Shown here: piece by piece, positions 1,939-20,868 of the stretch | How the letters are laid out: each line of letters starts with the position of its first letter | Numbering within the stretch: the stretch's first letter is position 1 | Virus record (IMG/VR): IMGVR_UViG_3300029305_011445 | From: a virus | Lineage: Duplodnaviria; Heunggongvirae; Uroviricota; Caudoviricetes | Length of the DNA: 53,015 bases | Direction: 5' to 3' (one strand) | Translations under genes and position numbers: made by a program | The notes under the pieces: model-generated | What the model was told of the DNA's origin: nothing | What the model saw: only the letters and a program-made list of their open reading frames with translations | Database searches by the model: none

Positions 1939-1979
1939 ATGTTAGTATTTTTAGTGTCTAATCAACATCTCATTAATAG

Positions 1980-2053
1980 TAGATCCACTGGGGCTCGAAC
2001 CCAGGACCTTCCGGTTATGAGCCGGACGCTCTGACCAACTGAGCTATGGATCC
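1980..2053 (-). tRNA. tRNA with CAT anticodon, Ile2-like
   Basis: Canonical cloverleaf; GGCTCATAACCG anticodon arm resembles Firmicutes Ile2. Confidence 0.9.
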
Positions 2054-2199
2054 ATAGTGGTAGCAAGATTCAGTCTAATCACCTATCTTGCTACTTTAAC
2101 TATACGCAGTTCCCTTTAACAGTTTAGATTGCGCGCTTAATCTTAAACTATGTTGTTATCGGCTTTTTACGGTCGGCTCGCGTATCTCCGCATTCCGCG

Positions 2200-2271
2200 C
2201 TGAGCTGGAGGGATTCGAACCCACGAATACCGGAATCAAAATCCGGTGCCTTACCGCTTGGCGACAGCCCA
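2200..2271 (-). tRNA. tRNA-Gln(TTG)
   Basis: TGGGCTG/CAGCTCA acceptor; loop TTTTGAT. Confidence 0.93.
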
Positions 2272-2417
2272 ATATTTTAAGCAACTTGCAAAACGAATGA
2301 AACCAAGTTGTTTGATACATCACTATCCACGTTTAAGGATGCCCATCGTTGCGTCATGATGTATGTTTTAATATATATTATTAGGTCCAAAATTATTTAA
2401 AACGTAGTGATTTGTTT

Positions 2418-2777
2418 TTAAATTTCTGCTACAGTTTCCATAATCGGGATGACAATATACTTGCCACCCGGGTTAAAATCATCTTCTTTTGAATCCCACC
2501 ATGATGAAAGGAAACTTGATTTTGCTTTTCTTTCACTCATGTACGTTTTGATTGGCGTATCACCAATTTCGTCTACGTTTTTAAGTTCATAGTGGCGTGC
2601 TAACCCGCAAAAAATCCGTTTTCTATCTGATGTCATTACAACAAATCGTTTACGTTTGATTACAAGATTATCTGAAATAACATCTCCTAAATCCCAACCA
2701 CATTCCGTATGTATACTCCTGTAACATTTAAATTGACACAAGTATATCATGGAATTAACAAACCGTCTACATATCAT
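2418..2777 (-). CDS. Hypothetical protein (start uncertain)
   Basis: 119-aa ORF between tRNAs; RBS weak. Confidence 0.65.
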   Translation of the reverse strand: MICRRFVNSMIYLCQFKCYRSIHTECGWDLGDVISDNLVIKRKRFVVMTSDRKRIFCGLARHYELKNVDEIGDTPIKTYMSERKAKSSFLSSWWDSKEDDFNPGGKYIVIPIMETVAEI

Positions 2778-2883
2778 TCATTGTACGAATATTATTATTC
2801 CAAAACGAATAATTTAATTCCAAAACATTGATGTAAAAAAAATTGAATCAGATAAATCTGAATCAACTCTTTTGATTCAACAA

Positions 2884-2956
2884 TACCAGTACCAGGGATT
2901 GAACCTCTACAATTGAACATTAGTAGTTCGATTGTCATGCATTAAACTATACCGTC
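2884..2956 (-). tRNA. Degenerate tRNA with CTA (amber) anticodon
   Basis: 73 nt; loop TA-CTA-AT in GAAC/GTTC stem; A33, no D-loop GG, weak T stem. Confidence 0.45.
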
Positions 2957-2964
2957 TAAATAAA

Positions 2965-3035
2965 CTATGGCGCCGGGAATCGGACCCGAATAATCTGGTT
3001 CAAGGCCAGCCGCATTACCATTATGCTACACCACA
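2965..3035 (-). tRNA. tRNA-Gln(TTG)
   Basis: Loop CCTTGAA; variant T loop TCCGATT. Confidence 0.8.
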
Positions 3036-3041
3036 AAGAAA

Positions 3042-3132
3042 CGGCGCAGACAGGACTTGAACCTGCAATCCATTTAAAAATGGGGCCTATGATTAGCAAT
3101 CATCCGTCTTACCAATTAGACATTACTGCGCC
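3042..3132 (-). tRNA. tRNA-Ser(GCT)
   Basis: Loop TTGCTAA, long variable arm, G73. Confidence 0.92.
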
Positions 3133-3136
3133 ATAA

Positions 3137-3201
3137 CTACCGGTACAGGAATTGAACCTGTGTTTTATGGGTCAGAACCATATTGACCTCATCTCACGGT
3201 A
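3137..3201 (-). tRNA. tRNA-Gln(CTG) with truncated D arm
   Basis: 65 nt; perfect TATGG/CCATA anticodon stem and ACAGG/CCTGT T stem; D region about 7 nt short. Confidence 0.6.
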
Positions 3202-3213
3202 TTGAATTAGAAA

Positions 3214-3286
3214 AGACCTTGGTCGGACTCGAACCGACGATCCTGGTTTTGCAGACCAGAGTCTTAGCCATCTTGACTACAAGGCC
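3214..3286 (-). tRNA. tRNA-Cys(GCA)
   Basis: Loop CTGCAAA, U73. Confidence 0.95.
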
Positions 3287-3291
3287 ATATA

Positions 3292-3362
3292 CAGAGACGA
3301 GAGGAATTGAACCTCTATTTGATGGTTCAGAGCCACCCGGTTTACCATTAACCTACGTCCCT
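3292..3362 (-). tRNA. tRNA-Gln(CTG)
   Basis: Loop CTCTGAA; AGGGACG/CGTCTCT acceptor. Confidence 0.9.
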
Positions 3363-3370
3363 AAATTGAG

Positions 3371-3456
3371 CGGTACGGGAGGGTCTCGATCCCTCATGTC
3401 GATTTCTCGACTCCCGCTTAGCAGGCGGGCACATTTGCCACTTCTGTCACCGTACC
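3371..3456 (-). tRNA. tRNA-Ser(GCT)
   Basis: CCCGC/GCGGG stem, long variable arm, atypical T loop ATCGAGA. Confidence 0.85.
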
Positions 3457-3461
3457 AGATA

Positions 3462-3536
3462 TTTCCCCGACTGGACTCGAACCAGCAACAAGTAGATTAG
3501 AAGTCTACTGCTCTCATTCCATTGAGCTACGAGGAA
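3462..3536 (-). tRNA. tRNA-Arg(TCT)
   Basis: Loop CTTCTAA; canonical cloverleaf. Confidence 0.93.
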
Positions 3537-3537
3537 G

Positions 3538-3610
3538 TCCTGACAATAGGAATTGAACCTATCACCTCACGCTTATCAGACGTGTGCTCTACCTACTGAG
3601 CTATGCCAGG
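3538..3610 (-). tRNA. tRNA-Ile(GAT)
   Basis: Loop CTGATAA. Confidence 0.95.
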
Positions 3611-3615
3611 ATGAG

Positions 3616-3691
3616 TATCCCTGACACGATTCGAACGTGCAACAAACCTTGGTTCGTAGCCAAGTGCTCTCTTCCATTGAGCTACAGGGAT
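3616..3691 (-). tRNA. tRNA-Arg(ACG)
   Basis: Loop CTACGAA. Confidence 0.93.
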
Positions 3692-3696
3692 ATAAA

Positions 3697-3768
3697 TGTC
3701 GATAGCAAGAATCGAACTCGCATCAGGGAGGTAGAAACTCCCTGTTCTATCCATTGAACTATATCGAC
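3697..3768 (-). tRNA. tRNA-Arg(TCT)
   Basis: GGGAG/CTCCC stem, loop TTTCTAC. Confidence 0.9.
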
Positions 3769-3775
3769 AAATAAG

Positions 3776-3862
3776 CGGTTGGAGTGGGATTCGAACCCAC
3801 ATGACTGTTACATCACATTAGTTTTCAAGACTACGCCGTTATAACCATTTCGGTACCCAACC
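3776..3862 (-). tRNA. tRNA-Ser(TGA)
   Basis: Loop CTTGAAA, long variable arm. Confidence 0.93.
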
Positions 3863-3866
3863 ATAG

Positions 3867-3937
3867 CAGATCCACTCCGAATCGAACAGAGAAATGTGAG
3901 GCTGGAGCTCACTGTTTTACCATTAAACTATGGATCC
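3867..3937 (-). tRNA. tRNA-Trp(CCA)
   Basis: GTGAG/CTCAC stem, loop CTCCAGC. Confidence 0.9.
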
Positions 3938-3943
3938 ATATAA

Positions 3944-4026
3944 CGCCGTAGACACGATTCGAACGTGCAAGCCCTTTCAGACCAACGATTTTCAAGACCG
4001 CTTCTTCCCCAACCCAGACCTACGGC
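3944..4026 (-). tRNA. tRNA-Ser(TGA)
   Basis: GCCGTAG/CTACGGC acceptor, loop CTTGAAA, long variable arm, unusual D arm. Confidence 0.8.
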
Positions 4027-4110
4027 AAATAAAATAAGCAGAACATATTCATTGAAAACGAATACACTCTGCTTCATTAAGCTTTGTTTCAGTTATATCT
4101 GTAACAATAA

Positions 4111-4302
4111 TTATGCACAATCTGCATATCTGAAAGTAGTTTGATACTTACGATACGAGACTCCCTCACTTGTTTCAGATGTTTTCGTTTTCATATGAAT
4201 TTTTGCATGATGAATAAGACTAGATACGATACTTGACCAGCTGCATCTAATCTGACGAGACGATTGTGAAATTCGACAATTTGTTCTCATTGTTGCTTTC
4301 AT
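4111..4302 (-). CDS. Possible small basic Ser/Arg-rich protein between tRNAs
   Basis: AAAGGA RBS before ATG at 4302; 63 codons; no family recognised. Confidence 0.4.
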   Translation of the reverse strand: MKATMRTNCRISQSSRQIRCSWSSIVSSLIHHAKIHMKTKTSETSEGVSYRKYQTTFRYADCA

Positions 4303-4341
4303 GATTAAATTCATTCCTTTCATTAATTTGTTTACAAAAAA

Positions 4342-4422
4342 TGCCCGCTACGAGACTCGAACTCGTACGCTCTAGGCGGCTGCTTCTAAGGCAGCGGTGT
4401 CTCCCAGTTCCACCAAACGGGC
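4342..4422 (-). tRNA. tRNA-Leu(TAG)
   Basis: Loop CTTAGAA, long variable arm, A73. Confidence 0.93.
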
Positions 4423-4428
4423 AAATAG

Positions 4429-4509
4429 TACAGGAACCGGGATTTGAACCCGGATGAACGAGTCAATTGATTTTGAATCAACCGCGTCTGCCAATTTCGC
4501 CATTCCTGC
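4429..4509 (-). tRNA. tRNA-Leu(CAA)
   Basis: Loop TTCAAAA, long variable arm. Confidence 0.92.
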
Positions 4510-4513
4510 ATAG

Positions 4514-4587
4514 TACACCTGGTGAGATTCGAACTCACACTGAACCGGGCTTAAACCGGATGCCTCTTCCAATTGGGCTACAAGTGC
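4514..4587 (-). tRNA. tRNA-Leu(TAA) with short variable loop
   Basis: Loop TTTAAGC; 74 nt; no long variable arm. Confidence 0.8.
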
Positions 4588-4597
4588 ATATTATAAA

Positions 4598-4670
4598 TGA
4601 CTCCGGCCGGATTTGAACCGAGCATTACTGACTTGAAAGGCCAGTGTCGTAACCACTAGACCACGGAGCC
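4598..4670 (-). tRNA. tRNA-Glu(TTC)
   Basis: Loop CTTTCAA. Confidence 0.93.
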
Positions 4671-4674
4671 ATAG

Positions 4675-4759
4675 GGTGAAAGATGAGATTTGAACTCACA
4701 CGGGATTTCTCCCACCGGAACCACAATCCGGCGCGTCTACCAATTTCGCCACTAACACC
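4675..4759 (-). tRNA. tRNA-His(GTG) with long variable arm
   Basis: Loop TTGTGGT, encoded G-1:C73, GGGA-GAAA-TCCC variable hairpin. Confidence 0.85.
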
Positions 4760-4795
4760 ATATTATTCATTGTAACACTATTATATGTTACACAG

Positions 4796-4870
4796 TTGGA
4801 ACGACAGGATTCGAACCTGCGACCTCTCCGGCCCAAACGGAGCACTCTAGCCAAACTGAGCCACGTTCCA
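4796..4870 (-). tRNA. tRNA-Pro(TGG)
   Basis: Loop TTTGGGC. Confidence 0.93.
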
Positions 4871-4880
4871 ATATTCGTAA

Positions 4881-5105
4881 CTACACGACTGTAGTCACGA
4901 TAATGTTGTCTATTGTTGTATCAAATATTGTTGCTAAGATTACCAAATTATCTATCGTTGGTATCGTATCACCACGGAACCATTTATATATTGCTTGTGG
5001 TGTTTGAAATCCAAATGTATTTTGTACCTCAGCTATTGTCATTTTCTTTGCTTTTACCATATTTTTGATGTTAGCACCTGTTGCTATCATATCTATCGTT
5101 GGCAT
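4881..5105 (-). CDS. XRE-family helix-turn-helix regulator
   Basis: MPTIDMIATGANIK...TPQAIYKWFRGDTIPTIDNL; GGAG RBS before ATG at 5105. Confidence 0.9.
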   Translation of the reverse strand: MPTIDMIATGANIKNMVKAKKMTIAEVQNTFGFQTPQAIYKWFRGDTIPTIDNLVILATIFDTTIDNIIVTTVV

Positions 5106-5145
5106 ATTATTTTCTCCTTCGATTCTACTGGAGCGTTTTGCATAC

Positions 5146-5275
5146 AAAAAGACACCGTTTCATAAGCATTTAAGCCTAGTCCCGGTGTCTGTCCTATAAA
5201 CAAAAACACCGTTTCATTTCTTTGCATCAAATTAATTGCTTCATAAGCCTATGCAAAGTAATAAAACGGAAACAT
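5146..5275 (-). promoter_or_regulatory. Attenuator-like leader (candidate HTH-XRE RNA motif)
   Basis: Terminator GACACCG...CGGTGTC-TTTTT with an upstream competing CGGTGT copy and a further sequestering hairpin. Confidence 0.6.
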
Positions 5276-5318
5276 GTCAATGATACTTCTATTTATTGAT
5301 CAATCAATGAAAGTTTAA

Positions 5319-5453
5319 TCATTCCATTTTGGGTTCTTTTTGCATAGGTACGACAAATAAGCTTCTCTGTTCTCGTTCGCAAAGCGGTAACGAAATGAGA
5401 TGCCAAGGTCTAATACAACTATGCAATTGCGATACCATGAATGTTGTTTTCAT
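5319..5453 (-). CDS. Possible 44-aa leader or small protein upstream of the XRE gene
   Basis: AAGGA RBS; MKTTFMVSQLHSCIRPWHLISLPLCEREQ... Confidence 0.45.
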   Translation of the reverse strand: MKTTFMVSQLHSCIRPWHLISLPLCEREQRSLFVVPMQKEPKME

Positions 5454-5702
5454 TGTTTTGTTTCCTTGCGTACTCGTAACTAAAGTTACTCCGTCGTACG
5501 TTCCTTTCATAATTTTGTTTCTTTGTTTCTTTCTATATCAAGAGCACACGAATGTTTACATTCGGTGTGTGAATGATTTGAGAATAACCTTTCTTAAATT
5601 AATTATACTAAATTGTGACAAAAAGTAAAGTAAACCTGTAGTATACTAATCGTCATTATTGTTTGTTTCTAAAAGATATTTCGGCCAAAATTAACCAAAA
5701 TA

Positions 5703-6176
5703 TTAATCACCAATGTCACCATAATCATCGATTTCAAAATCATCCAAGTTACAGTTTTTATAATCTTCAGCATTCATTTGTGGATGCGAATCAATATAAT
5801 TTGATATCAAGTCTGTCACATGTTCGTGTATCATATTATTTTGAAATCCTGTTTTTATACTTTTCAAAATGCGGGATAAATAAAATTCATCACCAAGTAT
5901 GCTAACAATATCGTCTAATAATACAGCGTCGAAAAGTTTGTGACTGGATAAATTATACTGAAACAATTGAATGTATGGTTTATCTACAATGTTGTGAATA
6001 ATCATAAATACATTTTCATTTGCATCTGATCGTATATATGCATAATTCGTTGTAGAAAGTCCTTTTGCTGTTTCTGCAATTTTAAGTATATTATCTGTTA
6101 TTGCATTATAATTGTTTTGCAAATCTTCATGATTTTTGGCAATTATGTTTAAATTGAAACATTTATACCCAACCAT
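5703..6176 (-). CDS. Hypothetical protein
   Basis: GCAGGAG RBS before ATG at 6176; acidic tail. Confidence 0.75.
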   Translation of the reverse strand: MVGYKCFNLNIIAKNHEDLQNNYNAITDNILKIAETAKGLSTTNYAYIRSDANENVFMIIHNIVDKPYIQLFQYNLSSHKLFDAVLLDDIVSILGDEFYLSRILKSIKTGFQNNMIHEHVTDLISNYIDSHPQMNAEDYKNCNLDDFEIDDYGDIGD

Positions 6177-6420
6177 GATGAATATCTCCTGCTTCAATTT
6201 TCTTTGCAATTTCAGGCATTCTACGACCCATTTCTGCATAATCTTTTATTGCTTTAATCACGTGCGATTCAATATCTTCAATGCTTTTATTTTTTTTGAT
6301 CGCCCCATGTGCCATAAAATCAATTTCATCCTGTGTTAATTTTACACCGGTTGCAACTTCGTATTCTTTTACTAACTTATCATCAACTGTGATTTCTTTT
6401 CCTTCAATATTGTAAGTCAT
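6163..6420 (-). CDS. Small hypothetical protein, distant paralog of 1634-1858 and 7428-7652
   Basis: MTYNIEGKEITVDDKLVKEYE vs MLLTVKGRTVEINDELATRYE. Confidence 0.8.
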   Translation of the reverse strand: MTYNIEGKEITVDDKLVKEYEVATGVKLTQDEIDFMAHGAIKKNKSIEDIESHVIKAIKDYAEMGRRMPEIAKKIEAGDIHHGWV

Positions 6421-6497
6421 TTTTTCTCCTTTTCTTTTGCAACTATTTATTGTTACAAATATATAAGGACCAATTTCTTTAAAAACGTAGTAAATTG

Positions 6498-6707
6498 TTA
6501 TACCAACATATCTACGTTACCGCCAATATGCGGATTAACACTTCGCTCCATAGATACTTTTGACGGAGTCGGTGCTGCCTCAATCATTCGCACCATTCCT
6601 TCTCCTGCCGTCTTCATTGCATCCATATTTTTGTTTAATACGGCAAAACCAATTTTGGTGCCTAAATTTGCAGCAGATAAGTTGCTTGAAATCTGTCTTA
6701 TATTCAT
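6498..6707 (-). CDS. YjfB-family (putative motility) protein
   Basis: C-terminal MERSVNPHIGGNVDMLV typical of Clostridial YjfB proteins; AGGAG RBS. Confidence 0.75.
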   Translation of the reverse strand: MNIRQISSNLSAANLGTKIGFAVLNKNMDAMKTAGEGMVRMIEAAPTPSKVSMERSVNPHIGGNVDMLV

Positions 6708-6729
6708 TGTTTTATATACTCCTTTTGTT

Positions 6730-7425
6730 TTAATCATCGTCTGCTGGGTCAAACCCATTATAATCATCTAAATTACCAGCATCATCAGTTCCACCTGTAT
6801 TGTTGATACCAATGCCATAAGTATTGCACATTGCTTGAAATATTGGTGATGCATTATATACTGCTGCATAAAGATTTTCAACAGATACATATTCAAGCGA
6901 CATTGATTCATATGCACCTATCAATGCATCTATATGGTCATTATACTCTGGTAATGATTTGAAACTTGGTCTATATGTATCAATATACGTTTCATACATA
7001 TTAATTGCATCAATTAATGGAATTGCAGCAAGCCATGCTTCATATATTTTGTTTGTACAACCTTCTATATGGTGAGCATTTGCAATCTCTTGCTTTGTGT
7101 TTTGTTCCAAGTTTGCCAATACATACAATTTAATTTTATCAAAGAAAAATGTATCATCATTAAATACAATTCGTTGTTTTCTTGTGTCATATATTCCTAA
7201 ATATATATTATCGTTATGAATAAACATGGTAAGATATGTTGTTGGATCAGAATTATATCTTACAAGTGACACTATCCCTTTATTGTTTAAATTATATGAG
7301 TTCTTGAAACTTTCTATTACTTTTACAACATCATATAATTCTGCACGATTTTGATTATATTTATTTATATTACCATTCTTATCAAATGGAAATAAACATA
7401 AATGAAACCTGGTAATTGTATCCAT
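6730..7425 (-). CDS. Hypothetical protein, paralog of 1230-1631
   Basis: 231 aa; shared MDTITR...LFP..K.GN N-terminus. Confidence 0.85.
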   Translation of the reverse strand: MDTITRFHLCLFPFDKNGNINKYNQNRAELYDVVKVIESFKNSYNLNNKGIVSLVRYNSDPTTYLTMFIHNDNIYLGIYDTRKQRIVFNDDTFFFDKIKLYVLANLEQNTKQEIANAHHIEGCTNKIYEAWLAAIPLIDAINMYETYIDTYRPSFKSLPEYNDHIDALIGAYESMSLEYVSVENLYAAVYNASPIFQAMCNTYGIGINNTGGTDDAGNLDDYNGFDPADDD

Positions 7426-7427
7426 AT

Positions 7428-7652
7428 TTATACACCTGTCACTTCAATATAACCAATAATAGCATCCTCAATAGTCTTAACCATTTCTTCATCAGTAAGA
7501 TCGTCTAAAATGTCATCAGCTAAACACTTATATGTTGTTGAAATTTCGCCCAATGCAAATAATTCTGTAATAGGCCCCATTCCAATCTTTTCATATCTTG
7601 TTGCTAATTCATCGTTGATTTCAACTGTTCTACCTTTTACTGTAAGTAACAT
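7428..7652 (-). CDS. Small acidic hypothetical protein, paralog of 1634-1858
   Basis: 74 aa; collinear similarity along the whole length. Confidence 0.85.
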   Translation of the reverse strand: MLLTVKGRTVEINDELATRYEKIGMGPITELFALGEISTTYKCLADDILDDLTDEEMVKTIEDAIIGYIEVTGV

Positions 7653-7777
7653 ATTTTAATATTCCTTTCTTTTGTTACAACTATTTATTGTTACAAATAT
7701 ATAAGGCTCATTTCTTACTTAAACGTAGTAAATTTGATACCTATCTATATTATACACAAAAACATTAAATTTGAGTA

Positions 7778-7861
7778 TTCGGATACTTCGTATCCTGCGC
7801 AAAAGTTTTGTAAAAACTTGAAAGAATTTTCAATTCTTTTGTGCCCATCTTCGAATGTCCG
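7778..7861 (-). ncRNA. Copy 1 of a repeated three-way-junction motif
   Basis: AAAAGAA..TTCTTT and AAGTTT..AAACTT hairpins inside an outer stem. Confidence 0.45.
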
Positions 7862-8050
7862 CTACGACATTGTATTCCACATTTTTGTTCGCAACATTTT
7901 ATCATAACCTTTATCACATGAGTCTTCTGTGATTGGAGCATGTCTTGCTCGGCGGTTGATTTCTTTGCGACGATTTCGTTTGTCTATTTTAATTTCTCTA
8001 TCCCACCATTTGCGGCAAAAAACATTGCGTCTGGATTGTGTCATACTCAT
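7862..8050 (-). CDS. Small basic hypothetical protein
   Basis: 62 aa, AGGAG RBS, Arg/Lys-rich. Confidence 0.7.
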   Translation of the reverse strand: MSMTQSRRNVFCRKWWDREIKIDKRNRRKEINRRARHAPITEDSCDKGYDKMLRTKMWNTMS

Positions 8051-8073
8051 AATATGTTACTCCTATTGATTAA

Positions 8074-8147
8074 TGCGTGTAGCAGGAATCGAACCTGCAA
8101 TTATATCTGATTAAGAATCAGGAGCCATACCGTTAGGCGATACACGC
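8074..8147 (-). tRNA. tRNA-Lys(CTT)
   Basis: Loop TTCTTAA. Confidence 0.88.
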
Positions 8148-8189
8148 GCGCTATAACGAATCTTGTTATAGCCACAAATATTGTGCTAA

Positions 8190-8262
8190 TGCGCCATATC
8201 CGGCTCGAACGGATGACCTAAGAGTTAAAAGCTCCTTACTCTACCAACTGAGTTAATGACGC
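8190..8262 (-). tRNA. tRNA-Lys(TTT)
   Basis: Loop CTTTTAA. Confidence 0.93.
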
Positions 8263-8269
8263 AGGCTAA

Positions 8270-8341
8270 TCTCCCAGACAGGATTTGAACCTGCGATATA
8301 CGGGTTAAAGGCCCGTTGCCATACCACTTGGCTACTGAGAG
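8270..8341 (-). tRNA. tRNA-Lys(TTT) with C33
   Basis: ACGGG/CCCGT stem, loop CCTTTAA; Gln-like D arm. Confidence 0.8.
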
Positions 8342-8388
8342 ATACTAATATTCTGTTTTCGTACTTTTGATTTCTGTTTTCGTTTCAT
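8332..8388 (-). CDS. 18-aa Lys-rich mini-ORF (MKRKQKSKVRKQNISISQ) overlapping tRNA-Lys
   Basis: GAAAGGAAAA RBS; five AAA codons. Confidence 0.45.
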   Translation of the reverse strand: MKRKQKSKVRKQNISISQ

Positions 8389-8420
8389 GTTTTGTATTTT
8401 CCTTTCGATTTAATAATTAA

Positions 8421-8494
8421 AGCTGAATCTCAGAATCGAACTGAGAACCAACGGCTTACGACACCGCTGCGCTACCAATTTGCGCCAATCCAGC
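8421..8494 (-). tRNA. tRNA-Thr(CGT)
   Basis: Loop GTCGTAA (G32). Confidence 0.85.
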
Positions 8495-8511
8495 ATACTA
8501 TATAAATCAAG

Positions 8512-8591
8512 TGCGCCGCTCTGGACTTGAACCAGAAATGCCGAAGCTACGAATTTACAGTCCGCTGCGATACCATTCCGCTCACCGACGC
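8512..8591 (-). tRNA. tRNA-Tyr(GTA)
   Basis: Loop CTGTAAA, long variable arm. Confidence 0.9.
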
Positions 8592-8684
8592 ATATAAATG
8601 TTTTTGGCTCAGACTTGCTCTGTGTTTTCACCGATTTGGTTCTCTTTAAAGGCTCATCCCATGCACATGCCCACCAAAAACAAA

Positions 8685-8758
8685 TTGCGGATACGAGATT
8701 CGAACTCGTGTCAATGGCTTATGAGACCATGCTGGATCCAACTCCAGTCCAATCCACA
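8685..8758 (-). tRNA. tRNA-Met(CAT)
   Basis: Loop CTCATAA; TGTGGAT/ATCCGCA acceptor. Confidence 0.88.
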
Positions 8759-8782
8759 ATAATATTACGATGATTTGCTACA

Positions 8783-8971
8783 TCAATTTGCTTCTGAAAT
8801 TGCTTTTTCAATCTTTTTCACTTCGATGTTAGCATAAACCTCTTCACCACAATTTTCACATACATATGATTCAATTCCATGAACTGTAGTATCCTGACCA
8901 TTTATGTTAAACGTTTTTGAAACAGTTTTTAATGGCATGTTACCACCACATTGAATACAGGTTCTATGCAT
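8783..8971 (-). CDS. YgiT/MqsA-type zinc-finger protein
   Basis: CIQCGG...GIESYVCENCGEEVY. Confidence 0.85.
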   Translation of the reverse strand: MHRTCIQCGGNMPLKTVSKTFNINGQDTTVHGIESYVCENCGEEVYANIEVKKIEKAISEAN

Positions 8972-9023
8972 GATTTTTTTTCATTTTTAACTCCTTTGTT
9001 TTCGATAATTAATAAGTGACAAA

Positions 9024-9097
9024 AGCTCCAAGCAGGATTTGAACCCGCAACTTACTGCTTACAAGGCAGTCACTCTATCCAGTTGAGTTATTGGAGC
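9024..9097 (-). tRNA. tRNA-Thr(TGT)
   Basis: Loop CTTGTAA. Confidence 0.95.
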
Positions 9098-9222
9098 ATA
9101 ATATTAAATCCCGGTACGGTTTAAGTCGCCGCCCTCGCTACACATTTTGCCACTTATCGTTGTTCCTACGATTCGATGCAACATTTGTTCTTAGCATCGT
9201 ACTTCGATCACCAAAGTACTAA

Positions 9223-9293
9223 AGCTGGTAGTCCGAATTGAACGAACGTAGCTGGGTTACAAATCCAGTGCTCGACCACTGAGCGATACCAGC
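9223..9293 (-). tRNA. tRNA-Thr(TGT)
   Basis: Loop TTTGTAA, A31-C39 mismatch. Confidence 0.8.
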
Positions 9294-9299
9294 ATATGA

Positions 9300-9467
9300 A
9301 ACACTTAACACATAGACCACTCAACTCGCATTCTCTTCGACTAGGATAAATTCATTCCCGTATCCTCGGTTTTTCGTCCCAACCATCTGTTATACAATTT
9401 GTATCATCGCAATCTAAGTCACTAGCAAACTATATCGTGTCAGAATTAGGTTGTTGCATTAAGTGTT
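9300..9467 (-). ncRNA. Candidate 168-nt structured RNA
   Basis: Ends closed by a perfect 9-bp AACACTTAA/TTAAGTGTT helix; internal hairpins. Confidence 0.5.
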
Positions 9468-9469
9468 GA

Positions 9470-9541
9470 AGCACGTGACGGGTGCTGGCCCCGCGTTTCT
9501 GCGTTGGCAACGCAGTGTTTTAGCTGTTAAACTACACATGC
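9470..9541 (-). tRNA. tRNA-Gly(GCC), atypical T and D loops
   Basis: Loop TTGCCAA, U73; T loop GCCAGCA; D loop lacks GG. Confidence 0.8.
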
Positions 9542-9545
9542 ATAA

Positions 9546-9617
9546 AGCGGATGAGGGTAGTCGAAACCCCGTCTCTTGGTTGGAAGCCAAGCGTTCTAGC
9601 CGTTAAACTACACCCGC
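9546..9617 (-). tRNA. tRNA-Gly(TCC)
   Basis: Loop CTTCCAA, U73. Confidence 0.92.
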
Positions 9618-9624
9618 ATATTCT

Positions 9625-9846
9625 GTTTCAGAACAATGTAGTATGTTCACATTGTTCCGTTCTTAGTAACGTCTCGACAACATACGTCTCTTGCACTTGT
9701 CGCTACTAAGAACGTAACTAAACACTCCATCAAAAGGACCGCGAAACTGTAAAGAGGTTTGGAGTATTTAATTCTCTTTTGCTTCTACGAAAGAACTGTG
9801 CAAAAGTTTCTACGAAACTTTAAAGAATCTTCGATTCTTTTGCACC
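9625..9846 (-). ncRNA. Multi-hairpin structured spacer including copy 2 of the three-way-junction motif
   Basis: Long hairpins at 9631-9657, 9658-9714 and 9720-9769; GTGCA/TGCAC-closed junction at about 9798-9845. Confidence 0.5.
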
Positions 9847-9954
9847 ATGCTCTTTTGTTTTCACAAAAGCTTTTTTTGTTGCAGTTTCATTTTCAGGAAC
9901 AGTTATCCTGTCTCTTACCTTAATGCTCCGCAAAGCACCAGGGCCATCCTTTAG

Positions 9955-10027
9955 TACACCCACTAGGAGTCGAACCCAGAATCGCTGGATATAAGCCAGG
10001 TGCAACGTACCGCATCACCTTGGGTGC
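9955..10027 (-). tRNA. tRNA-Ile(TAT)
   Basis: Loop CTTATAT, A73; atypical D arm. Confidence 0.75.
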
Positions 10028-10062
10028 ATATTACTCTTGCAACAAATGCAAGAGTTATAAAT

Positions 10063-10479
10063 TTATTCGTTTACATATCTCTTTGCCACACCAGATGCCA
10101 TTTTGCCATCCATATTTGCGCCAAAATGCTCTTTTAACATCTTCATACATGTACCCATGTTTTTATCAGCATCATTTGTTACAAGATATTCCATGATTTC
10201 ATCTTCTGTTGCCATCTTTGGCAACACTGCTTCACAGTAGCCAATCTTTTCTGTAACTTCATTGTGTCGATCAGTACCTGCTTCACAATACGCTAACAAA
10301 TCATTAAGATCTTTGATTTCTTTTCTTGTAGCAGTTACAATCATTTCATCTGTTACAGCTACATTTGTTTCTTTTGCAATCTTTTGAGCCTTTTCTAAGA
10401 TGCTTTTGTACGTAATCTGTTTATTTTTATTACGCTCTTTCATTGCTTCTTTGATTAAGTTTCTAATTGTTGTTTCCAT
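10063..10479 (-). CDS. GatB/YqeY domain protein
   Basis: LIKEAMKERNK N-terminus; YCEAVLPKMATEDEI; NMGTCMKMLKEHFGANMDGK. Confidence 0.9.
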   Translation of the reverse strand: METTIRNLIKEAMKERNKNKQITYKSILEKAQKIAKETNVAVTDEMIVTATRKEIKDLNDLLAYCEAGTDRHNEVTEKIGYCEAVLPKMATEDEIMEYLVTNDADKNMGTCMKMLKEHFGANMDGKMASGVAKRYVNE

Positions 10480-10617
10480 TGTTTTTGTTTCCTTTGTTTT
10501 TATTCCGCTCTGCTGGTCTCGTATTTCTTTTTTACAAGACCAACAGGCAATTCAGCGGTGACGAACCGCCGAGAAACCATATGTTGTCATCATATGGATG
10601 GACTTGTGAGTCCTAAG

Positions 10618-10689
10618 TTGGAACGGTGAGACTCGAACTCACAACTACTGCATCCCAAATGCAGCCGTCTGCCATTGACTTACGTTCCA
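10618..10689 (-). tRNA. tRNA-Pro(TGG)
   Basis: Loop TTTGGGA. Confidence 0.9.
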
Positions 10690-10809
10690 AAGTTGTGAAA
10701 CATCACGTCTGATGTTTCACCATGCAAGCCTAACCTACATACTTGCTCGAACATTCCATTACGTCACGTTTGTGTGTCGCGATTCACACAAAAATGTTCT
10801 TCCGCCTCA

Positions 10810-10883
10810 TGTCCGATATAGGACTTGAACCTATAAGCCTTCTGCTTGTAAGGCAGCTGTTCTCCCAGTTGAACTAATCGGAC
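10810..10883 (-). tRNA. tRNA-Val(TAC)
   Basis: Loop CTTACAA. Confidence 0.93.
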
Positions 10884-11012
10884 TGATCAACCGTTACCAT
10901 AAATGGTAACTAGCTCACATGAGCTTTAATCATTCACACACTAAAGTGTGCTCTTGATTGCGCCACATTCTACCCATGACGTAGGCGACTCTGCAGAGTA
11001 TTCAGGCGCGAA

Positions 11013-11089
11013 TGGAGCCTACGAGAATTGAACTCGTCTGTTTTTCCTGCTTGCAAGGCAGGTGACCACCCCTTGCAGTCCCAGACCCC
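11013..11089 (-). tRNA. tRNA-Ala(TGC)
   Basis: Loop CTTGCAA; G3-U70 present. Confidence 0.88.
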
Positions 11090-11153
11090 ATATGTTTCTT
11101 GTTTTACTTGGACCAACACATATGTGGCTTGAAACAAGAAAAGCTATCCTGAG

Positions 11154-11226
11154 TGGCTTTGAGACGTTTCGAGCGTCTGACCTTCCGGGCTTCAACCGGA
11201 TGCTACTACCTCTGAGCTACAAAGCC
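11154..11226 (-). tRNA. tRNA-Phe(GAA)
   Basis: Loop TTGAAGC; T loop CTCGAAA. Confidence 0.88.
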
Positions 11227-11230
11227 ATAA

Positions 11231-11304
11231 CGGACACAGTAGGGCTTGAACCTACGACCCCCTGATTAACAGTCAGGTGCTACTACCAGCTGAGCTATGT
11301 GTCC
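11231..11304 (-). tRNA. tRNA-Asn(GTT)
   Basis: Loop CTGTTAA, G73. Confidence 0.95.
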
Positions 11305-11310
11305 ATGTAG

Positions 11311-11393
11311 ACGGTAGGGTGGGAATCGAACCCACGTTGTTTCTTTGTAACGGATTTACAGTCCGCCGTCATCGCCGCTAGACATACCTACCG
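11311..11393 (-). tRNA. tRNA-Tyr(GTA)
   Basis: Loop CTGTAAA, long variable arm. Confidence 0.88.
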
Positions 11394-11961
11394 ATTTTTG
11401 TTTTAATATTTTATTTTGAATAACCAAGACTTTTGCATAAGTTTGCACATTATCGTTTCATTTCTATATTCCTTTCTTCGTGTTTTATTAATATAAAAAG
11501 ACCGTCCCATATCATATACGGAACGATCTTAAGTGTAGACTTAATTAATTACTCTTTCATTACATTTTGGATAACAAAGTTTTGTCATCCAATGATAATT
11601 CCGTATATATATGGTTAGAATTGCAAAAATATCCTGTTGTATAGATAACTCCAAAATTGCACAATGAATTAAGCATAGCTGGTTTCGCTATACTGCCTGT
11701 ATAATTTTTAAAGTTTACATTATGCATTGGCTGTCTCATAATTTTTGCGTCCTTTCTTTTTTTTATATAAACCCGGAACTCATAGGTTACCGGAGTATGA
11801 ACCTTTCTTTAATTCGTTAATAAATATGGTTTATGTCCTTTACAAAGCAAAACATTTCGTTACCGCCTATAACGGCTATATACTCGGGGAAGTATATAGG
11901 TTGAATTTCACAAATTGCAAAATTAAACTTGAAAAGGAGAAAAGATGATTTCCATCTTTAA

Positions 11962-12032
11962 AGCTTATGAAGGGAATCGAACCCTCAAATCTTGCTTGGG
12001 AAGCAAGTGTTTTACCACTAAACTACATAAGC
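11962..12032 (-). tRNA. tRNA-Gly(CCC)
   Basis: Loop TTCCCAA, U73. Confidence 0.93.
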
Positions 12033-12092
12033 AAATTTATTTTATCGATATTGGAACAATGCATTACCCAAGTTCGATATTGTTTTGGGAAA

Positions 12093-12163
12093 TTGCAAAG
12101 GCAGGAGTTGAACCTGCATCCATGGGTCTATGAAGCCCGTGGGATGACCGCATCAGCTTTGCA
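12093..12163 (-). tRNA. Atypical CAT tRNA, initiator-like, with miniature D loop
   Basis: TGCAAAG/CTTTGCA acceptor; GGG/CCC anticodon pairs; GATG-CGGT-CATC D arm. Confidence 0.6.
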
Positions 12164-12234
12164 ACCTGTAACTTTATACACGGAGAAAACCTCATACCAC
12201 TGTCGCATTTCAGTGCCCTATTCTGAAATGCAAG

Positions 12235-12307
12235 CGACTCAGACGGGGATCGAACCCGCTACCTTCTGATAGACAGTCAGACGTGCATCCTATTACACCT
12301 CAGAGCC
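12235..12307 (-). tRNA. tRNA-Asp(GTC)
   Basis: Loop CTGTCTA, G73. Confidence 0.9.
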
Positions 12308-12315
12308 ATATTTAA

Positions 12316-12384
12316 CAGAAACGATGGGATTCGAACCCATGATCTTCCCGTAAAGGACACTCTGCCCGACTGAGCTACGTTTCT
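12316..12384 (-). tRNA. tRNA-like gene with collapsed anticodon arm (no assignable anticodon)
   Basis: Perfect acceptor, D and T arms; anticodon arm reduced to TCC-TTTACG-GGA. Confidence 0.65.
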
Positions 12385-12439
12385 GCGAATGCATACTTTA
12401 AGGTATACATTCTATTGCTACAACAAAACCGTTAGTAGA

Positions 12440-12523
12440 ATCATTGTAACGAAATATTGTTTGTTACCCGGATTTCAAAAGTTTCATAGAAACTTTAAAG
12501 AACCATTGATTCTTTTTACCGGG
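12440..12523 (-). ncRNA. Copy 3 of the three-way-junction motif
   Basis: Same two A/T hairpins, closed by CCCGG/CCGGG. Confidence 0.45.
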
Positions 12524-12544
12524 ATGTAAAGTCGATCCATTTTG

Positions 12545-13080
12545 TCGATCAAAGCGTTTTGTTACTGGTTTATGCTTTTAAACGAATCGCTACCAGACAA
12601 AGCATTCGTCCCTGTTTGTTTGTTGTTGCCAACAAGCACTTGGCTCTGTGCTTCTGTTTGTGTCAGTGCCCTGTATAAAAGTTTATGAAACTTTACGTTT
12701 AAATGAACCATCGCTGACACTGGTTCAACCCGTACAGTCTTTAAAGTGCGTCGGTTATATACACTATTAAATCCATTTTAATGAGCTGAGACATTGACTC
12801 ATGTACTTATCATCTATCATTGTTGGCAATGACATGTCACACAGCCGATTAAGCTGTAGATAAGAGCGACACCAGTTTCGGTTACTGGCTAACCACTGCG
12901 TTAGGTTTCATAGATTTCCGTTTGACACATTCTTCCTTGCGGGATTCAGAGATTGCAGTCTCTTAGAGTTGCATCTACTTGTACTTTTCTCACACTTTGT
13001 CTTGCGAACTCCATGTGCGTTCATATTTCAGAACGATAAGTCGCTTTTAGCCTTAACGCCGTACACACTTTTGCTTTATT
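12545..13080 (-). ncRNA. Large ornate ncRNA, about 540 nt (ROOL-like; family unverified)
   Basis: ORF-free; long-range helix 13055-13071 with 12743-12756; pseudoknot 12714-12720 with 12660-12666; many hairpins; tRNA-array context. Confidence 0.6.
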
Positions 13081-13149
13081 ATGTTTTGTATAATATGATT
13101 TCCTATTATTAAATCAGATAACACAATCCATTTGCAATAGATGTATACA

Positions 13150-13735
13150 ATAATATTCAATTGGATGATGAGGTGCACGTTTTGAATCTCCGTACCTTTT
13201 GAATACGGCCCAATTCGTCACCACCCTGCTCGTCTTGCGATCGACTTGCTTCGTAGCCAATATCCCACGTTGTCCGTGTCCGAATATCAATCAACGATTA
13301 ACATAGCACTTACGCTTGCGGCATTCGTACCATGAAACATTCAACCATCCCCGTATTTCTACGTTATTACAGTGCCTACTCTAGTTTCAAGACACCCACT
13401 CAAACCACATTTTACTAGACAGTAGTCCCTCTGAATGGAAGGTTTGGTGTAGGTTGTAATGGTTTTCCGTCAAACTCCCGATGCGTACGCTCGAAAAGTC
13501 GCAGTATATTAATTACCACTTTATCCCTGTCACCAGGTTTATTTTTAAGCTTTTGTACTTTTACGTAACCGTATTCACGTTTTGCGCGAATACAATCTCG
13601 CTTAAATACAATTACTTTCAGACCCGAAACCAGCCCGTTTGCATTTCTGCAAAAACCGTTCTACAAGACATGATCCTGCTCATAAGACTCAACTGGTATC
13701 TTATGCGTTCCCAACTGAACAGAACGGTGTTCAAA
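13150..13735 (-). ncRNA. Second large structured RNA, about 590 nt (family unknown)
   Basis: GC-enriched, ORF-free on the sense strand; nested helices; GCAA/GAAA/GTGA-capped hairpins. Confidence 0.55.
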
Positions 13736-13782
13736 AACTTTTACAAAAGGAGAAAGTTACAAAATGTTAAATCCTGTAACAG

Positions 13783-13856
13783 TTGCGGGGATTGGACTCG
13801 AACCAACGACCTCCGGGATATGAGCCCGGCGAGCTTCCAACTGCTACCACCCCGCA
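13783..13856 (-). tRNA. tRNA-fMet(CAT)
   Basis: Three G-C pairs in the anticodon stem, loop CTCATAT, U1-A72. Confidence 0.92.
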
Positions 13857-13944
13857 AGATGGCTGAAGATTTAAACTTCAGCCGATATTAAGTTTAAGGA
13901 AGTATAATAATGTACTATACATGTAAAGGTGAGAACATGTATAA

Positions 13945-14017
13945 TCACTCCGGTGGGAATTGAACCCAACATTACCGCCGTGAAAGGACGGTGTCCGTGC
14001 CACTAGACTACGGAGCG
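13945..14017 (-). tRNA. tRNA-Glu(TTC)
   Basis: Loop CTTTCAC. Confidence 0.92.
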
Positions 14018-14038
14018 AGAAATTTATTATATTTATTA

Positions 14039-14065
14039 TTAGGACCAAATTATTTCGAAACGAAG
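14039..14065 (-). promoter_or_regulatory. Class A promoter motif heading the tRNA array (one of 13 copies)
   Basis: CTTCGTTT-N-TGGTCCTAATA, fixed spacing. Confidence 0.65.
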
Positions 14066-14263
14066 TAATTTGATATATTTTTTTCTTACCTGCCTAATTG
14101 TTTCATTTGAAACAATTGAGACAGGATTTTGCGTGACTAAAAAAGATTAATTAGAAGACAATAATAAATATGGTTTATACTTTTTACAAAGTAAAACACT
14201 TTTTCGTTTCATATATAGTATTAGGGCCAGAATTATAAAAACGAAGTAATTTTTTAAAAGATT

Positions 14264-14512: not shown

Positions 14513-14721
14513 AAATTTTCATCCCCTTTCATTTTCTATAACGTTTGTTTAATCCGTTTCGTAGATATAAGCTAATTTGCATTATATTCTTTCTTGTTTA
14601 TAAACTTTAGTTTGTTTTACATATATAAGGTCCAATTTACGTAGAAACGTAGAAATATTCAAAAACATCACATCCCATATTTAATATGTATCAAATACAA
14701 CAATTTAAAAGGAGAATAATT

Positions 14722-15561: not shown

Positions 15562-15602
15562 AAAAAAAACGGATACCAAATCGGCATCCGTTTCTTTTTT
15601 TT
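15562..15602. terminator. Bidirectional terminator between convergent genes
   Basis: A-run aaacggatac...gcatccgttt T-run. Confidence 0.75.
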
Positions 15603-16336
15603 TACACGATGAATTTATCCATAGGTTTTAATTTGAACAAATTGGTTTCGTGTTTCTTGCGAATCAAATCATCTGTTTCTTTATTACCACTAGTTCCAAT
15701 ACGAATATACTGGTCTAAAGCTTCGTATGTGAAACCGAAGTTGTCTTCATCTGTTTTGCCACAAAGACCGTCTGCCGGGGTTTTGTCGACCAGGTGGTTT
15801 GGTAATTTTAAGTATTTACCAATTGCAACGACTTCTGTTTTTGTTAATCCACCTAATGGGGCAAAATCACCATCTCCGTCACCACCAATTGTAAAATATC
15901 CAATATAATCTTCAGATAAATTACAAGTATTTACCATACGACCATTTACGCACTGGCAAACAGCTCGAATGACTTTTGTTCGTTCACGTGGCGGTAAATT
16001 TTCTCGGGCTTGTTTTGTGATATATAATTCACAATCGTTTAAAACATTGTATGTAGCATCTACGCCGCTTTTAATGTTGATTGTCAAATTCGGGATACCC
16101 AAGATGTCGCAAACCTCTTTAGCGTCAGCAATATCGGACTGTTCACCATTCGGCAACATCAACCCGAGCACGCGATCTGGTCCTAAAGCCTTGACGCATA
16201 ATGCAGCTGCGACGGTAGAATCCTTTCCGCCTGAAATGCCCAATACAGCTTTACTTTTTGGCCCATTTTCTTCGAACCACATTTTAATCCAGTTAACCAA
16301 CTCATTGGTTACACGTTCGACATTGAATTTGTACAT
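15602..16336 (-). CDS. nadE: NH3-dependent NAD+ synthetase
   Basis: VLGISGGKDS, NLSE..GYFTIGGDG.GD, LTKTEV, KTPADGL; no glutaminase domain. Confidence 0.97.
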   Translation of the reverse strand: MYKFNVERVTNELVNWIKMWFEENGPKSKAVLGISGGKDSTVAAALCVKALGPDRVLGLMLPNGEQSDIADAKEVCDILGIPNLTINIKSGVDATYNVLNDCELYITKQARENLPPRERTKVIRAVCQCVNGRMVNTCNLSEDYIGYFTIGGDGDGDFAPLGGLTKTEVVAIGKYLKLPNHLVDKTPADGLCGKTDEDNFGFTYEALDQYIRIGTSGNKETDDLIRKKHETNLFKLKPMDKFIV

Positions 16337-16361
16337 ATACTAATCTCCATTCCTTTCGTCA

Positions 16362-17252
16362 TTAGAAAATCAAACTCGCTTTTGAATCCCATTTGCTATA
16401 CAAGTGACCATTTGGTCTTAAAATGAGATACTTAACAGCTGTTTTATTAACGCCTTGTGACATAGAGTCTTCATCAATTACTGTTGAAAATCCTTTGTAA
16501 TCATATCGATCGGCGCCATATTCAAGTGTGTCAAGATACTTACCATCAGCTTCCACCGCTGTTTTAAATGTCTCAATAAACCCATATGTAGGGAGTGTTA
16601 CATTTTTATTGATCCAGTCTGCTTGCGGTGTACCATCTTCTGATGTCCATAAAGCGCGACACGTAATCTGATCTGCACCAAATGTTTTGCAACGATTAAT
16701 AACAGCTTCCAATGCTACTGGCGCATCTTCTAATCCTGCAATCATTTTATCGTTCATGTTAAGACAGATACGAAGATTCATATTACGTTCTTTGATTTTG
16801 CCACAAAGTTTTTTAATCTTAAGATTTTTATCCGGTGTCTTAATCATGTTACGATTTTTCTTGTCATCATCAAGACATGCAACAGAAATAGCCATTGTTG
16901 TTACACCTACATCCTGTAAAAAATCTAACATGTCATCATCAATAAATGCTCCAGATGTCTGCATTTCGATATTAAGGAATGGATCTTTGAGTGACTTATT
17001 TACAACACCAAGAACGCGTAAGAAGTCTTTGTTTTGCTGCGGTTCATTGTTACCTGTAAGCATCAACGTGTTGCAGCCATTATCTCTGGCGTACTGAAGT
17101 CTTTTCTTCATATCCTCAATGTAACTCATAGTTGTTGCAATTGGTGTGAATCGATCTTCATAATCAGCACCATGCATTTTACTGCAACAAAACTGACAAT
17201 CATTAATACATTTTTTAGCCGGCACACATACCGATAGTGATTGAATATTCAT
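16362..17252 (-). CDS. Radical SAM protein of unknown function
   Basis: CINDCQFC (CxxxCxxC), LTGNNEP. Confidence 0.9.
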   Translation of the reverse strand: MNIQSLSVCVPAKKCINDCQFCCSKMHGADYEDRFTPIATTMSYIEDMKKRLQYARDNGCNTLMLTGNNEPQQNKDFLRVLGVVNKSLKDPFLNIEMQTSGAFIDDDMLDFLQDVGVTTMAISVACLDDDKKNRNMIKTPDKNLKIKKLCGKIKERNMNLRICLNMNDKMIAGLEDAPVALEAVINRCKTFGADQITCRALWTSEDGTPQADWINKNVTLPTYGFIETFKTAVEADGKYLDTLEYGADRYDYKGFSTVIDEDSMSQGVNKTAVKYLILRPNGHLYSKWDSKASLIF

Positions 17253-17442
17253 TTTTATTACTCCTTTTCTTTGTAATTATTTGATACAGAAATAAATATG
17301 GTATATATATTACTAAAATAAAAAGAAAATGCATCGGAAACATTTCGATGCATTTGTCTTTTATTCTTTACTTACCATTGAATCCTGATTTAACCAGTTT
17401 TATATTCTAAGCAGGTTGTATTAGCCCGCTTGGAACTTAAGA

Positions 17443-18651: not shown

Positions 18652-18828
18652 AATCATTTCTCCTTTTTCTTGTATAAGATATTTGAAACTTTATGTTTCA
18701 GTTACAAAAATAAATATGGTATGCAGAAATTGCATACTATCGCATTTAATAAATCAAACGATCTTTCGTTACGCATTGACGCCTTTAACAAGTTAAAGGA
18801 TATGATATATAAAGAGATACGAAGCAGA

Positions 18829-19266
18829 TTACTCCACTTCGTATTCGTAAAATTCTCGTAACGCATTTAATTTTTCACAAACACATGGCGTTCCATCTGA
18901 ATTCATAAGCATAGTAAATGTTGTTCCAAAACCTCGTGCCTCAACACCGCTTACTTCCTTTTCTGTATATAGATACATTATTCCCGTCTCTAAATCAACG
19001 ATTGTATACATATACAAATATTCGTAATTCAAATAAATTGACTCTTTTTCAATTGGGACGAAACGTACATTGCCAGATATTTTCATCAGAATTCCATCAT
19101 CGGAAAGCTCGAAAATCTTTTCTGTTTCAATTTCTTCAATCACTTCAATTACTTTGTTATTCTCATAATTGGTGTTTAATTCATTTTTAACAGTAGATGA
19201 TGATGTTTCACCACACCCTGTAACAAATATCATTGTTCCAATTAAAAATATGATTAATTTTTTCAT
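18829..19266 (-). CDS. Lipoprotein, DUF6440-like
   Basis: Lipobox FVTGC; IVDLETGIMYLY...TMLMNSDGTP. Confidence 0.65.
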   Translation of the reverse strand: MKKLIIFLIGTMIFVTGCGETSSSTVKNELNTNYENNKVIEVIEEIETEKIFELSDDGILMKISGNVRFVPIEKESIYLNYEYLYMYTIVDLETGIMYLYTEKEVSGVEARGFGTTFTMLMNSDGTPCVCEKLNALREFYEYEVE

Positions 19267-19366
19267 ATCACTTTATCTCCTTTTATTATTGTATAATATA
19301 TATAAGGTCCAAAATATTTCAAAACGAAGAAAAAAAATACACCAGATTACTGGTGTATTTTTCTGT

Positions 19367-19924: not shown

Positions 19925-19954
19925 ATTTTTATTTCCTTTCATTTTTACATAAGA

Positions 19955-20527: not shown

Positions 20528-20586
20528 ATTTTTACTCCTTTCGTTTGTTAATAAGTATATTTTATAACGTAATAAATATGGTACGG

Positions 20587-20868
20587 CTAACACAGTGTTT
20601 TCTTAATAATTTCATCAATTAAAACAATATCCTGTTTATAGCGATCTGAATTTACATCACCATGATCAATTGCTTCATATCTGGCATTCTGCATGGTTCT
20701 TAACTGTTGCAAAAACTGTTCATTTTTAGTAGTTTCGATACACTTTAATTCCATGTAACAAGGTGCATCTTTTTCATTTATAATGTTTAATACACAATTA
20801 CCGTCTCTGTGCCATTTACAGATACTTTTTAGTTCATTGTGAATACATAATGATTTATCAATATGCAT
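20587..20868 (-). CDS. Hypothetical protein
   Basis: 93-aa ORF, AAGGAG RBS. Confidence 0.75.
   Translation of the reverse strand: MHIDKSLCIHNELKSICKWHRDGNCVLNIINEKDAPCYMELKCIETTKNEQFLQQLRTMQNARYEAIDHGDVNSDRYKQDIVLIDEIIKKTLC

Follow-up and report, generated by a model that had tools for sequence, protein, structure and literature searches.

Twin hairpins in a viral tRNA array

The 53,015-nt virus stretch IMGVR_UViG_3300029305_011445, referred to here as the window and the source of all coordinates, carries on its minus strand an array of at least 40 tRNA genes (1979..14018), whose spacers hold three copies of a short palindromic element, the twin hairpin. Each copy consists of two abutting 8-bp hairpins, each with a 3-nt loop, and all lie on the minus strand: copy 1 at 7802..7839 (loops GAA and TAC on the tRNA strand), copy 2 at 9803..9840 (GAA and GTA), and copy 3 at 12478..12515 (AAT and TAT, with one G-U pair on the minus strand). 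A lone 7-bp hairpin of the same family is present as a single unit at 12678..12694 (minus strand). An earlier note on this DNA had reported the three copies and the lone AAAGUUU/AAACUUU hairpin, and all four are where it placed them. Their number exceeds chance: the two hairpin patterns have 4 and 3 matches in the window against 0.08 and 0.23 expected, a count reached by no shuffle, and no comparable twin hairpin occurs in 30 shuffled windows. A repeat search of the window grouped the three copies as one family (D12), and a covariance model of the twin recovers exactly these three.

The phage copies are only 68-81% identical to one another, and pairing is still maintained; in copy 1 the innermost C-G pair is replaced by T-A in both hairpins and one basal pair is lost. 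With a 5-bp closing stem each copy extends to 7797..7844, 9798..9845 and 12467..12523, respectively. Copy 2 makes a perfect three-way junction; the closing stem of copy 1 has a G-U on the plus strand, which becomes an A-C mismatch on the minus strand; in copy 3 unpaired linkers of 3 and 6 nt separate twin and stem. The further hairpins noted beside the copies are mutually unrelated and weak in copy 2; the one adjoining copy 1, a 6-bp hairpin with a GAA loop (7781..7795, minus strand), lies outside the conserved unit. Evidence from wobble pairs as to the strand is conflicting, since the G-U of copy 3 exists on the minus (tRNA) strand only and that of the copy 1 closing stem on the plus strand only. 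The predicted fold of copy 1 depends on the parameters used: RNA energies give one irregular hairpin, and DNA energies give the junction on both strands.

All three phage copies are co-oriented within the transcribed array, for which the chance is 1 in 4. Promoter-like sites occur at chance level only, no copy has a terminator score, and Rfam has no match to the twin in the window or at the host loci described below. Readings as hammerhead, theta or group II intron were rejected because the core motifs are missing on inspection. Around the lone hairpin (12655-12740, minus strand) one stem has a loop that pairs with a downstream 7-mer, a possible pseudoknot; this candidate was set aside: folding gives no signal (z -0.6), and homologues were not found.

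Homologous repeats in gut Clostridia

A pattern derived from the window, in which only the basal pairs of the stems were fixed, was scanned over 596 Gb with one genome per species. Among its 56 matches, those fully paired in both stems come from only three metagenome-assembled genomes (MAGs), RGIG7291, SIG622 and T1900044873, all from one uncultured genus of Clostridia represented by seven genomes. These three hold 29 pattern matches, with the inner arms paired in 28 and the arm sequences differing. Counting of pairs gives 94% paired cells, and changes on both sides of a pair number 30 against 9.0 +/- 2.8 in shuffles, although the three window rows were misaligned by one column in hairpin 1, and such counts are inflated by relatedness. 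The covariation anticipated by the earlier note is thus found in the inner stems of homologues, but these reside in Clostridia chromosomes rather than in related phages. A covariance model built from the host copies yields 59, 36 and 36 matches at E <= 0.5 in the three species, some of them both-strand duplicates, and 1-4 weak matches in the four sister species; about 50 distinct twin copies are dispersed between unrelated genes across the three species. The 54 open reading frames (ORFs) neighboring twins match 66 unrelated Pfam families and share no theme.

This patchy range appears to be narrow. Among the matches listed for about 300 genomes of the order and about 400 of the class there is no further fully paired family, so that the fully paired twin was not seen elsewhere in some 700 other Clostridia genomes sampled, nor in IMG/VR; 28 viral and metagenome matches to a similar pattern in the IMG/VR and JGI scans look like chance and were discarded. 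The phage copies are close to those of the host: one host hairpin (L195) differs from the first phage hairpin by a single loop base. A radical-SAM protein of the phage is also 67% identical to the product of a gene beside a twin in SIG622, with a best identity of 46-47% in 119 other Clostridia, which suggests a link through this gene between the phage and the twin-bearing lineage. No matches resembling spacers of clustered regularly interspaced short palindromic repeats (CRISPR) tie the window to the twin-bearing genus.

The twin unit spans 36-44 bp and comprises two hairpins based on AAG...CTT, set back to back with a joint of about two bases, usually TA. Each palindrome is 17 to 21 bp long, and its inner 4-5 bp vary freely but stay palindromic; a G precedes the outer AAG at 51 of 98 twin ends. 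Most host copies are heterodimers, predicted to fold as two separate hairpins and not as one long hairpin. The loops follow a purine-left, pyrimidine-right order in 26 copies and the reverse order in one; because this order reads alike from both strands, the twin is an inverted pair. On identical stems a given loop can be replaced by its reverse complement: GAA and TTC are one such case, and the phage has GTA versus TAC. GNA triloops stabilize DNA hairpins. Both orientations are used: of 49 distinct host copies, 13 sense and 12 antisense ones stand between co-directional genes (with gene strands assigned by a composition heuristic), and others lie between convergent or divergent genes.

These features point to a DNA-level element, with effects on RNA also possible. 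The earlier suggestion of an undescribed RNA module stands insofar as the twin is an undescribed structured module with covarying homologues, as expected of a cis-acting RNA motif, but neither a fixed strand nor a conserved third helix was found; a strand-specific RNA signal is disfavored because of the 13:12 orientation, the loop flips and the lack of a fixed distance to tRNA ends (given below).

The same three genomes contain a related monomer: one GAAG-tagged hairpin, closed by a GAA loop, with heptamer arrays after it. It occurs 67, 6 and 5 times in them, not at all in the other four genomes of the genus, and not more than once in 144 other genomes of the family. Among the twin halves, several correspond to this monomer in perfected form. 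In two species an inverted pair of monomers brackets a four-helix-bundle gene (TIGR02436) before valS, and at the valS site of other genus members the cassette is missing. Six of the seven genomes of the genus have four-helix-bundle genes, and five related phage records have none; only the valS-type cassette has these ends, and one genome (G003) carries twins but no such valS cassette. The cassette measures 554 bp, has arms made of the hairpin and heptamers (L327, L328), and is cleanly absent in the sister genome G304 (L482-L486).

Twins have entered other repeats. In 13 of 48 copies, compared with 0-4 in the control, taking out the twin and a few adjoining bases recreates a repeat known from other places. 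In the cleanest cases TG-twin-CA stands directly 3' of a GNA mini-hairpin, without duplication, and clean pairs of empty and filled sites differ by about 2 extra nt per side with no target duplication, which sets the twin apart from miniature inverted-repeat transposable elements. The targets are monomers, the ends of DUF559 cassettes and heptamer arrays, and the sequences flanking host twins belong to unrelated repeats. The closing stem is therefore outside the element and derives from the palindrome hosting the twin; it varies because the twin has been inserted into different palindromes. The hairpin pair alone is conserved, and the three-way junction once proposed as the unit is not. For the phage copies, insertion into palindromes is inferred.

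Candidate drivers were sought among Y1_Tnp, DUF559 and GIY-YIG genes and rejected, being found across the genus or lacking flanking twins. IS200 copies in these genomes have ends that differ from the twin. One RAYT-like gene (for repetitive extragenic palindrome (REP)-associated tyrosine transposase), in G001, has no adjoining twin in these incomplete MAGs, and its nearest monomer lies about 0.7 kb away beyond another gene. In five genomes searched for GIY-YIG genes, the only frames were of 617-633 aa, the length of UvrC, and none was a single-domain gene.

The phage setting

A YqeY-like gene inside the tRNA array (10063..10479, minus strand) was used to gather phage relatives. These relatives also sit in tRNA arrays, on contigs of up to 460 kb and on complete IMG/VR phages of 244-394 kb, and two of the complete phages carry GOLLD RNA as well; judged by these relatives, the window is therefore probably part of a jumbo phage of Clostridia. 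No virion gene was identified, and it may instead belong to a megaplasmid. The window has no plasmid or cultured-phage matches beyond its tRNAs. Across 279 kb of related phage loci and five related phage genomes no twin is present, and the relatives gathered through YqeY, four complete phages of 244-394 kb among them, are without it.

Copy 2 lies in a structured 336-nt spacer between tRNA-Ile(TAT) and tRNA-Gly (9618..9953, minus strand; z = -6.3), which measures about 49 nt in two relatives (L002, L397). A separate 53-nt stem with internal loops, at 9660-9712, has no Rfam match; its homologue in a relative (L395:2394-2446) follows tRNA-Asn, is 83% identical and shows compensatory changes. Outside the twin motif, a divergent GOLLD-like RNA (12783..13640, minus strand) resembles its known counterparts in lying in a tRNA island, here downstream of tRNA-Met. 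The match to the GOLLD model, Rfam RF02032 (PMC12286853), covers 12783-13226 with the full-length model (E 2.7e-21; 81.9 bits, against a cut-off of 150 bits), and its 5' motifs near 13631 and 13542 are shared with two jumbo phages. The 3' domain is about 69% identical to the GOLLDs of two complete jumbo phages (L363, L364). A twin stands about 270 nt past the 3' end of this RNA; as none is present beside the GOLLDs of two related phages, the twin is not a GOLLD domain. The distances from twins to the upstream tRNA are 234, 113 and 1266 nt, and those to the downstream tRNA 185 and 93 nt.

Several other features of the array region were recorded. A structured-looking spacer between two tRNA-Thr(TGT) genes (9120-9197) has no Rfam match and is 80% identical to a relative's spacer (L003:1180-1260). 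At 1020-1230 on the minus strand, a non-coding unit of about 210 nt ends in a tRNA-type T arm and an acceptor-like strand; it has short matches in L355 and L356 and was missed by ARAGORN and Rfam. The mutually related repeat families D9 and D11 (6432-6496, 7670-7734, 14594-14658; 2366-2414, 14024-14072, 14206-14254) are upstream of minus-strand transcription units and are probably phage promoters. A two-gene module is duplicated at 1230-1858 and 6730-7652, the smaller gene having 72% DNA identity over 127 nt, and a hairpin word with CACAC/GTGTG arms is repeated in two spacers (about 5525-5575 and 10925-10960). Three tRNA-like genes (9470-9541, 12093-12164 and 12316-12384) are called by Rfam and not by ARAGORN; the score of that at 12093-12164 is only weak, and an atypical tRNA is possible there. 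ARAGORN calls a tRNA with a TTA (ochre-reading) anticodon in a related phage of 394 kb (L354:3138-3209).

An NAD salvage cluster (15602-20593) encodes NAD synthase, nicotinate phosphoribosyltransferase, and isochorismatase-family and cytidylyltransferase-family proteins, and has with it a rare radical-SAM gene. Other products of the window are a PARP-domain protein, an actin-like partition protein and NrdD.

Origin of the twin

The closest known elements are REP dimers, in particular head-to-head heterodimers, and bacterial interspersed mosaic elements. REPs with GTAG and CGTC tags form heterodimers, in some families with 1-2 bp spacers, and some of the dimers are inserted in other palindromes (PMC3733652). 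Like the twin, they are short extragenic tagged hairpins, patchy across species and mostly present as tag-outward dimers, whose differing halves may fold separately. The host copies are likewise short, palindromic, extragenic, multi-copy and uneven among related species, with inverted, tag-outward dimers predominating; they differ in having a GAAG tag instead of GTAG/CGTC, in the absence of a Y1 transposase (RAYT) gene flanked by the repeat, and, for most copies, in not forming a doublet that folds as a single long hairpin. Neither Firmicutes nor phages are mentioned in the main text of the REP survey (PMC3733652).

REPINs are inverted doublets tied to RAYTs (PMC3116915, PMC6006769) and share with the twin an extragenic, non-autonomous character and the inverted doublet as apparent mobile unit. 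Unlike a REPIN, which forms a single long hairpin and comes with its own RAYT, the twin usually has differing halves that fold as two hairpins, and no RAYT belonging to it was found. Hairpin repeats (NTS/SRM) frame the Ssn nucleases, which cut them (PMC11893778); there, as here, an oriented hairpin repeat with a conserved 5' flank forms mosaic clusters and brackets a small gene, but that gene is a GIY-YIG nuclease in the Ssn systems and encodes a four-helix-bundle protein in the Clostridia. Given the differing tag and the lack of a flanked RAYT or Ssn gene, the twin is REP-dimer-like but not a strict member of the REPs. No published description of it was found in a literature search that was thin on subscription papers. 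The twin is thus an undescribed sequence family of a familiar kind, REP-like hairpin dimers, unusual for the missing enzyme and for its location on a phage.

The preferred explanation, to which a probability of about 0.6 is assigned, is that the twin is a REP-type, tag-outward heterodimer spread through single-stranded DNA by a putative nuclease or transposase, and that the phage obtained it from the host lineage. Here the twin is an inverted heterodimer built from a GAAG-tagged hairpin repeat with GNA loops, and this repeat has expanded in three species of one Clostridia genus. It would move as single-stranded DNA, recognized by its fold and the basal AAG/CTT, and be pasted into exposed hairpins by a putative site-specific nuclease or transposase, as proposed for REP dimers. 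The phage-like element would have acquired one or more copies from the host lineage, which landed in palindromic tRNA spacers; with the closing stem contributed by the target, the phage copies would resemble three-way junctions, and they may be tolerated because they fold on themselves within the tRNA precursor.

Several points weigh against this explanation. No Y1 transposase, GIY-YIG or DUF559 gene in these genomes is flanked by a twin, and no empty site was found for the phage copies, whose stems are shorter and more AT-rich, whose tag has A in place of the G of GAAG, and which have no heptamer arrays nearby. The host link is one gene, in a genome not chosen blind. The host genomes are incomplete MAGs, and neither the host copies nor the three species are independent samples; palindrome repair by template switching can also mimic covariation. 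Finally, the phage copies all face the same way in a transcribed array, with pairing kept despite their divergence.

This last point also favors an unlikely alternative, in which the origin is the same and the phage copies now act as RNA, their stacked helices binding a protein or stalling nucleases and so shaping the processing or stability of the tRNA/GOLLD precursor. Besides the shared orientation within the tRNA operon, the loops differ but two compensatory changes and one G-U preserve the stems, and the spacer around copy 2 is strongly structured. An influence on RNA cleavage is also suspected for REP dimers (PMC3733652). Against RNA use stand the variable distances to tRNA ends, the absence of the twin from the related phage loci and genomes, and the fold of copy 1, which at RNA energies is not a junction; three-base loops, too, are poor RNA loops. 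A more elaborate and rather doubtful proposal makes the twin a minimal mobile 40-bp hairpin pair that parasitizes the hairpin ends of cassettes (four-helix-bundle and DUF559), is moved by an enzyme that is neither Y1 nor Ssn, and jumped into a jumbo phage, where it was retained as a decoy or RNA-processing module.

It is improbable that the phage copies serve simply as decoys or recognition sites for a host protein that binds the repeat, such as a hairpin nuclease or the four-helix-bundle protein. In favor are the restriction of the repeat to a narrow lineage, with which the phage has exchanged one gene or more, and the precedent of Ssn, a small nuclease that cuts the hairpin repeats belonging to it (PMC11893778); against it, no such protein was identified, the GIY-YIG genes being of UvrC length only, and three copies are few compared with dozens in the host. 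Similarly low odds are given to local duplication within the phage, with the likeness to the chromosomal family due to convergence of AT-rich hairpins: the window is AT-rich, most host copies have stems one pair longer than those of the phage, and host-type flanks are missing, but ten basal bases, the spacer, the loop size and GNA loops are common to both, and neither the roughly 700 Clostridia genomes nor IMG/VR showed the fully paired form elsewhere. Least likely of all is a tandem double operator for a dimeric DNA-binding protein, a form of the palindromic operator raised earlier, which would fit two abutting, strand-independent 19-bp palindromes that have related half-sites and a separation of about two helical turns, but not inner base pairs that change freely with pairing kept, lengths of 17 to 21 bp, copies between convergent genes and neighbors without a common theme.

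These observations extend REP-type hairpin dimers to a lineage of gut Clostridia, with a different tag and no recognizable transposase, and filled and empty targets are now at hand for a search for the enzyme. They also tie the repeat to four-helix-bundle cassettes with heptamer arms. For phage genomics there is a caution, that DNA insertions into palindromes can pass for covarying "three-way junctions" in the tRNA spacers of phages, and a prospect, that a lineage-restricted repeat on an uncultured phage may be a marker for assigning its host.

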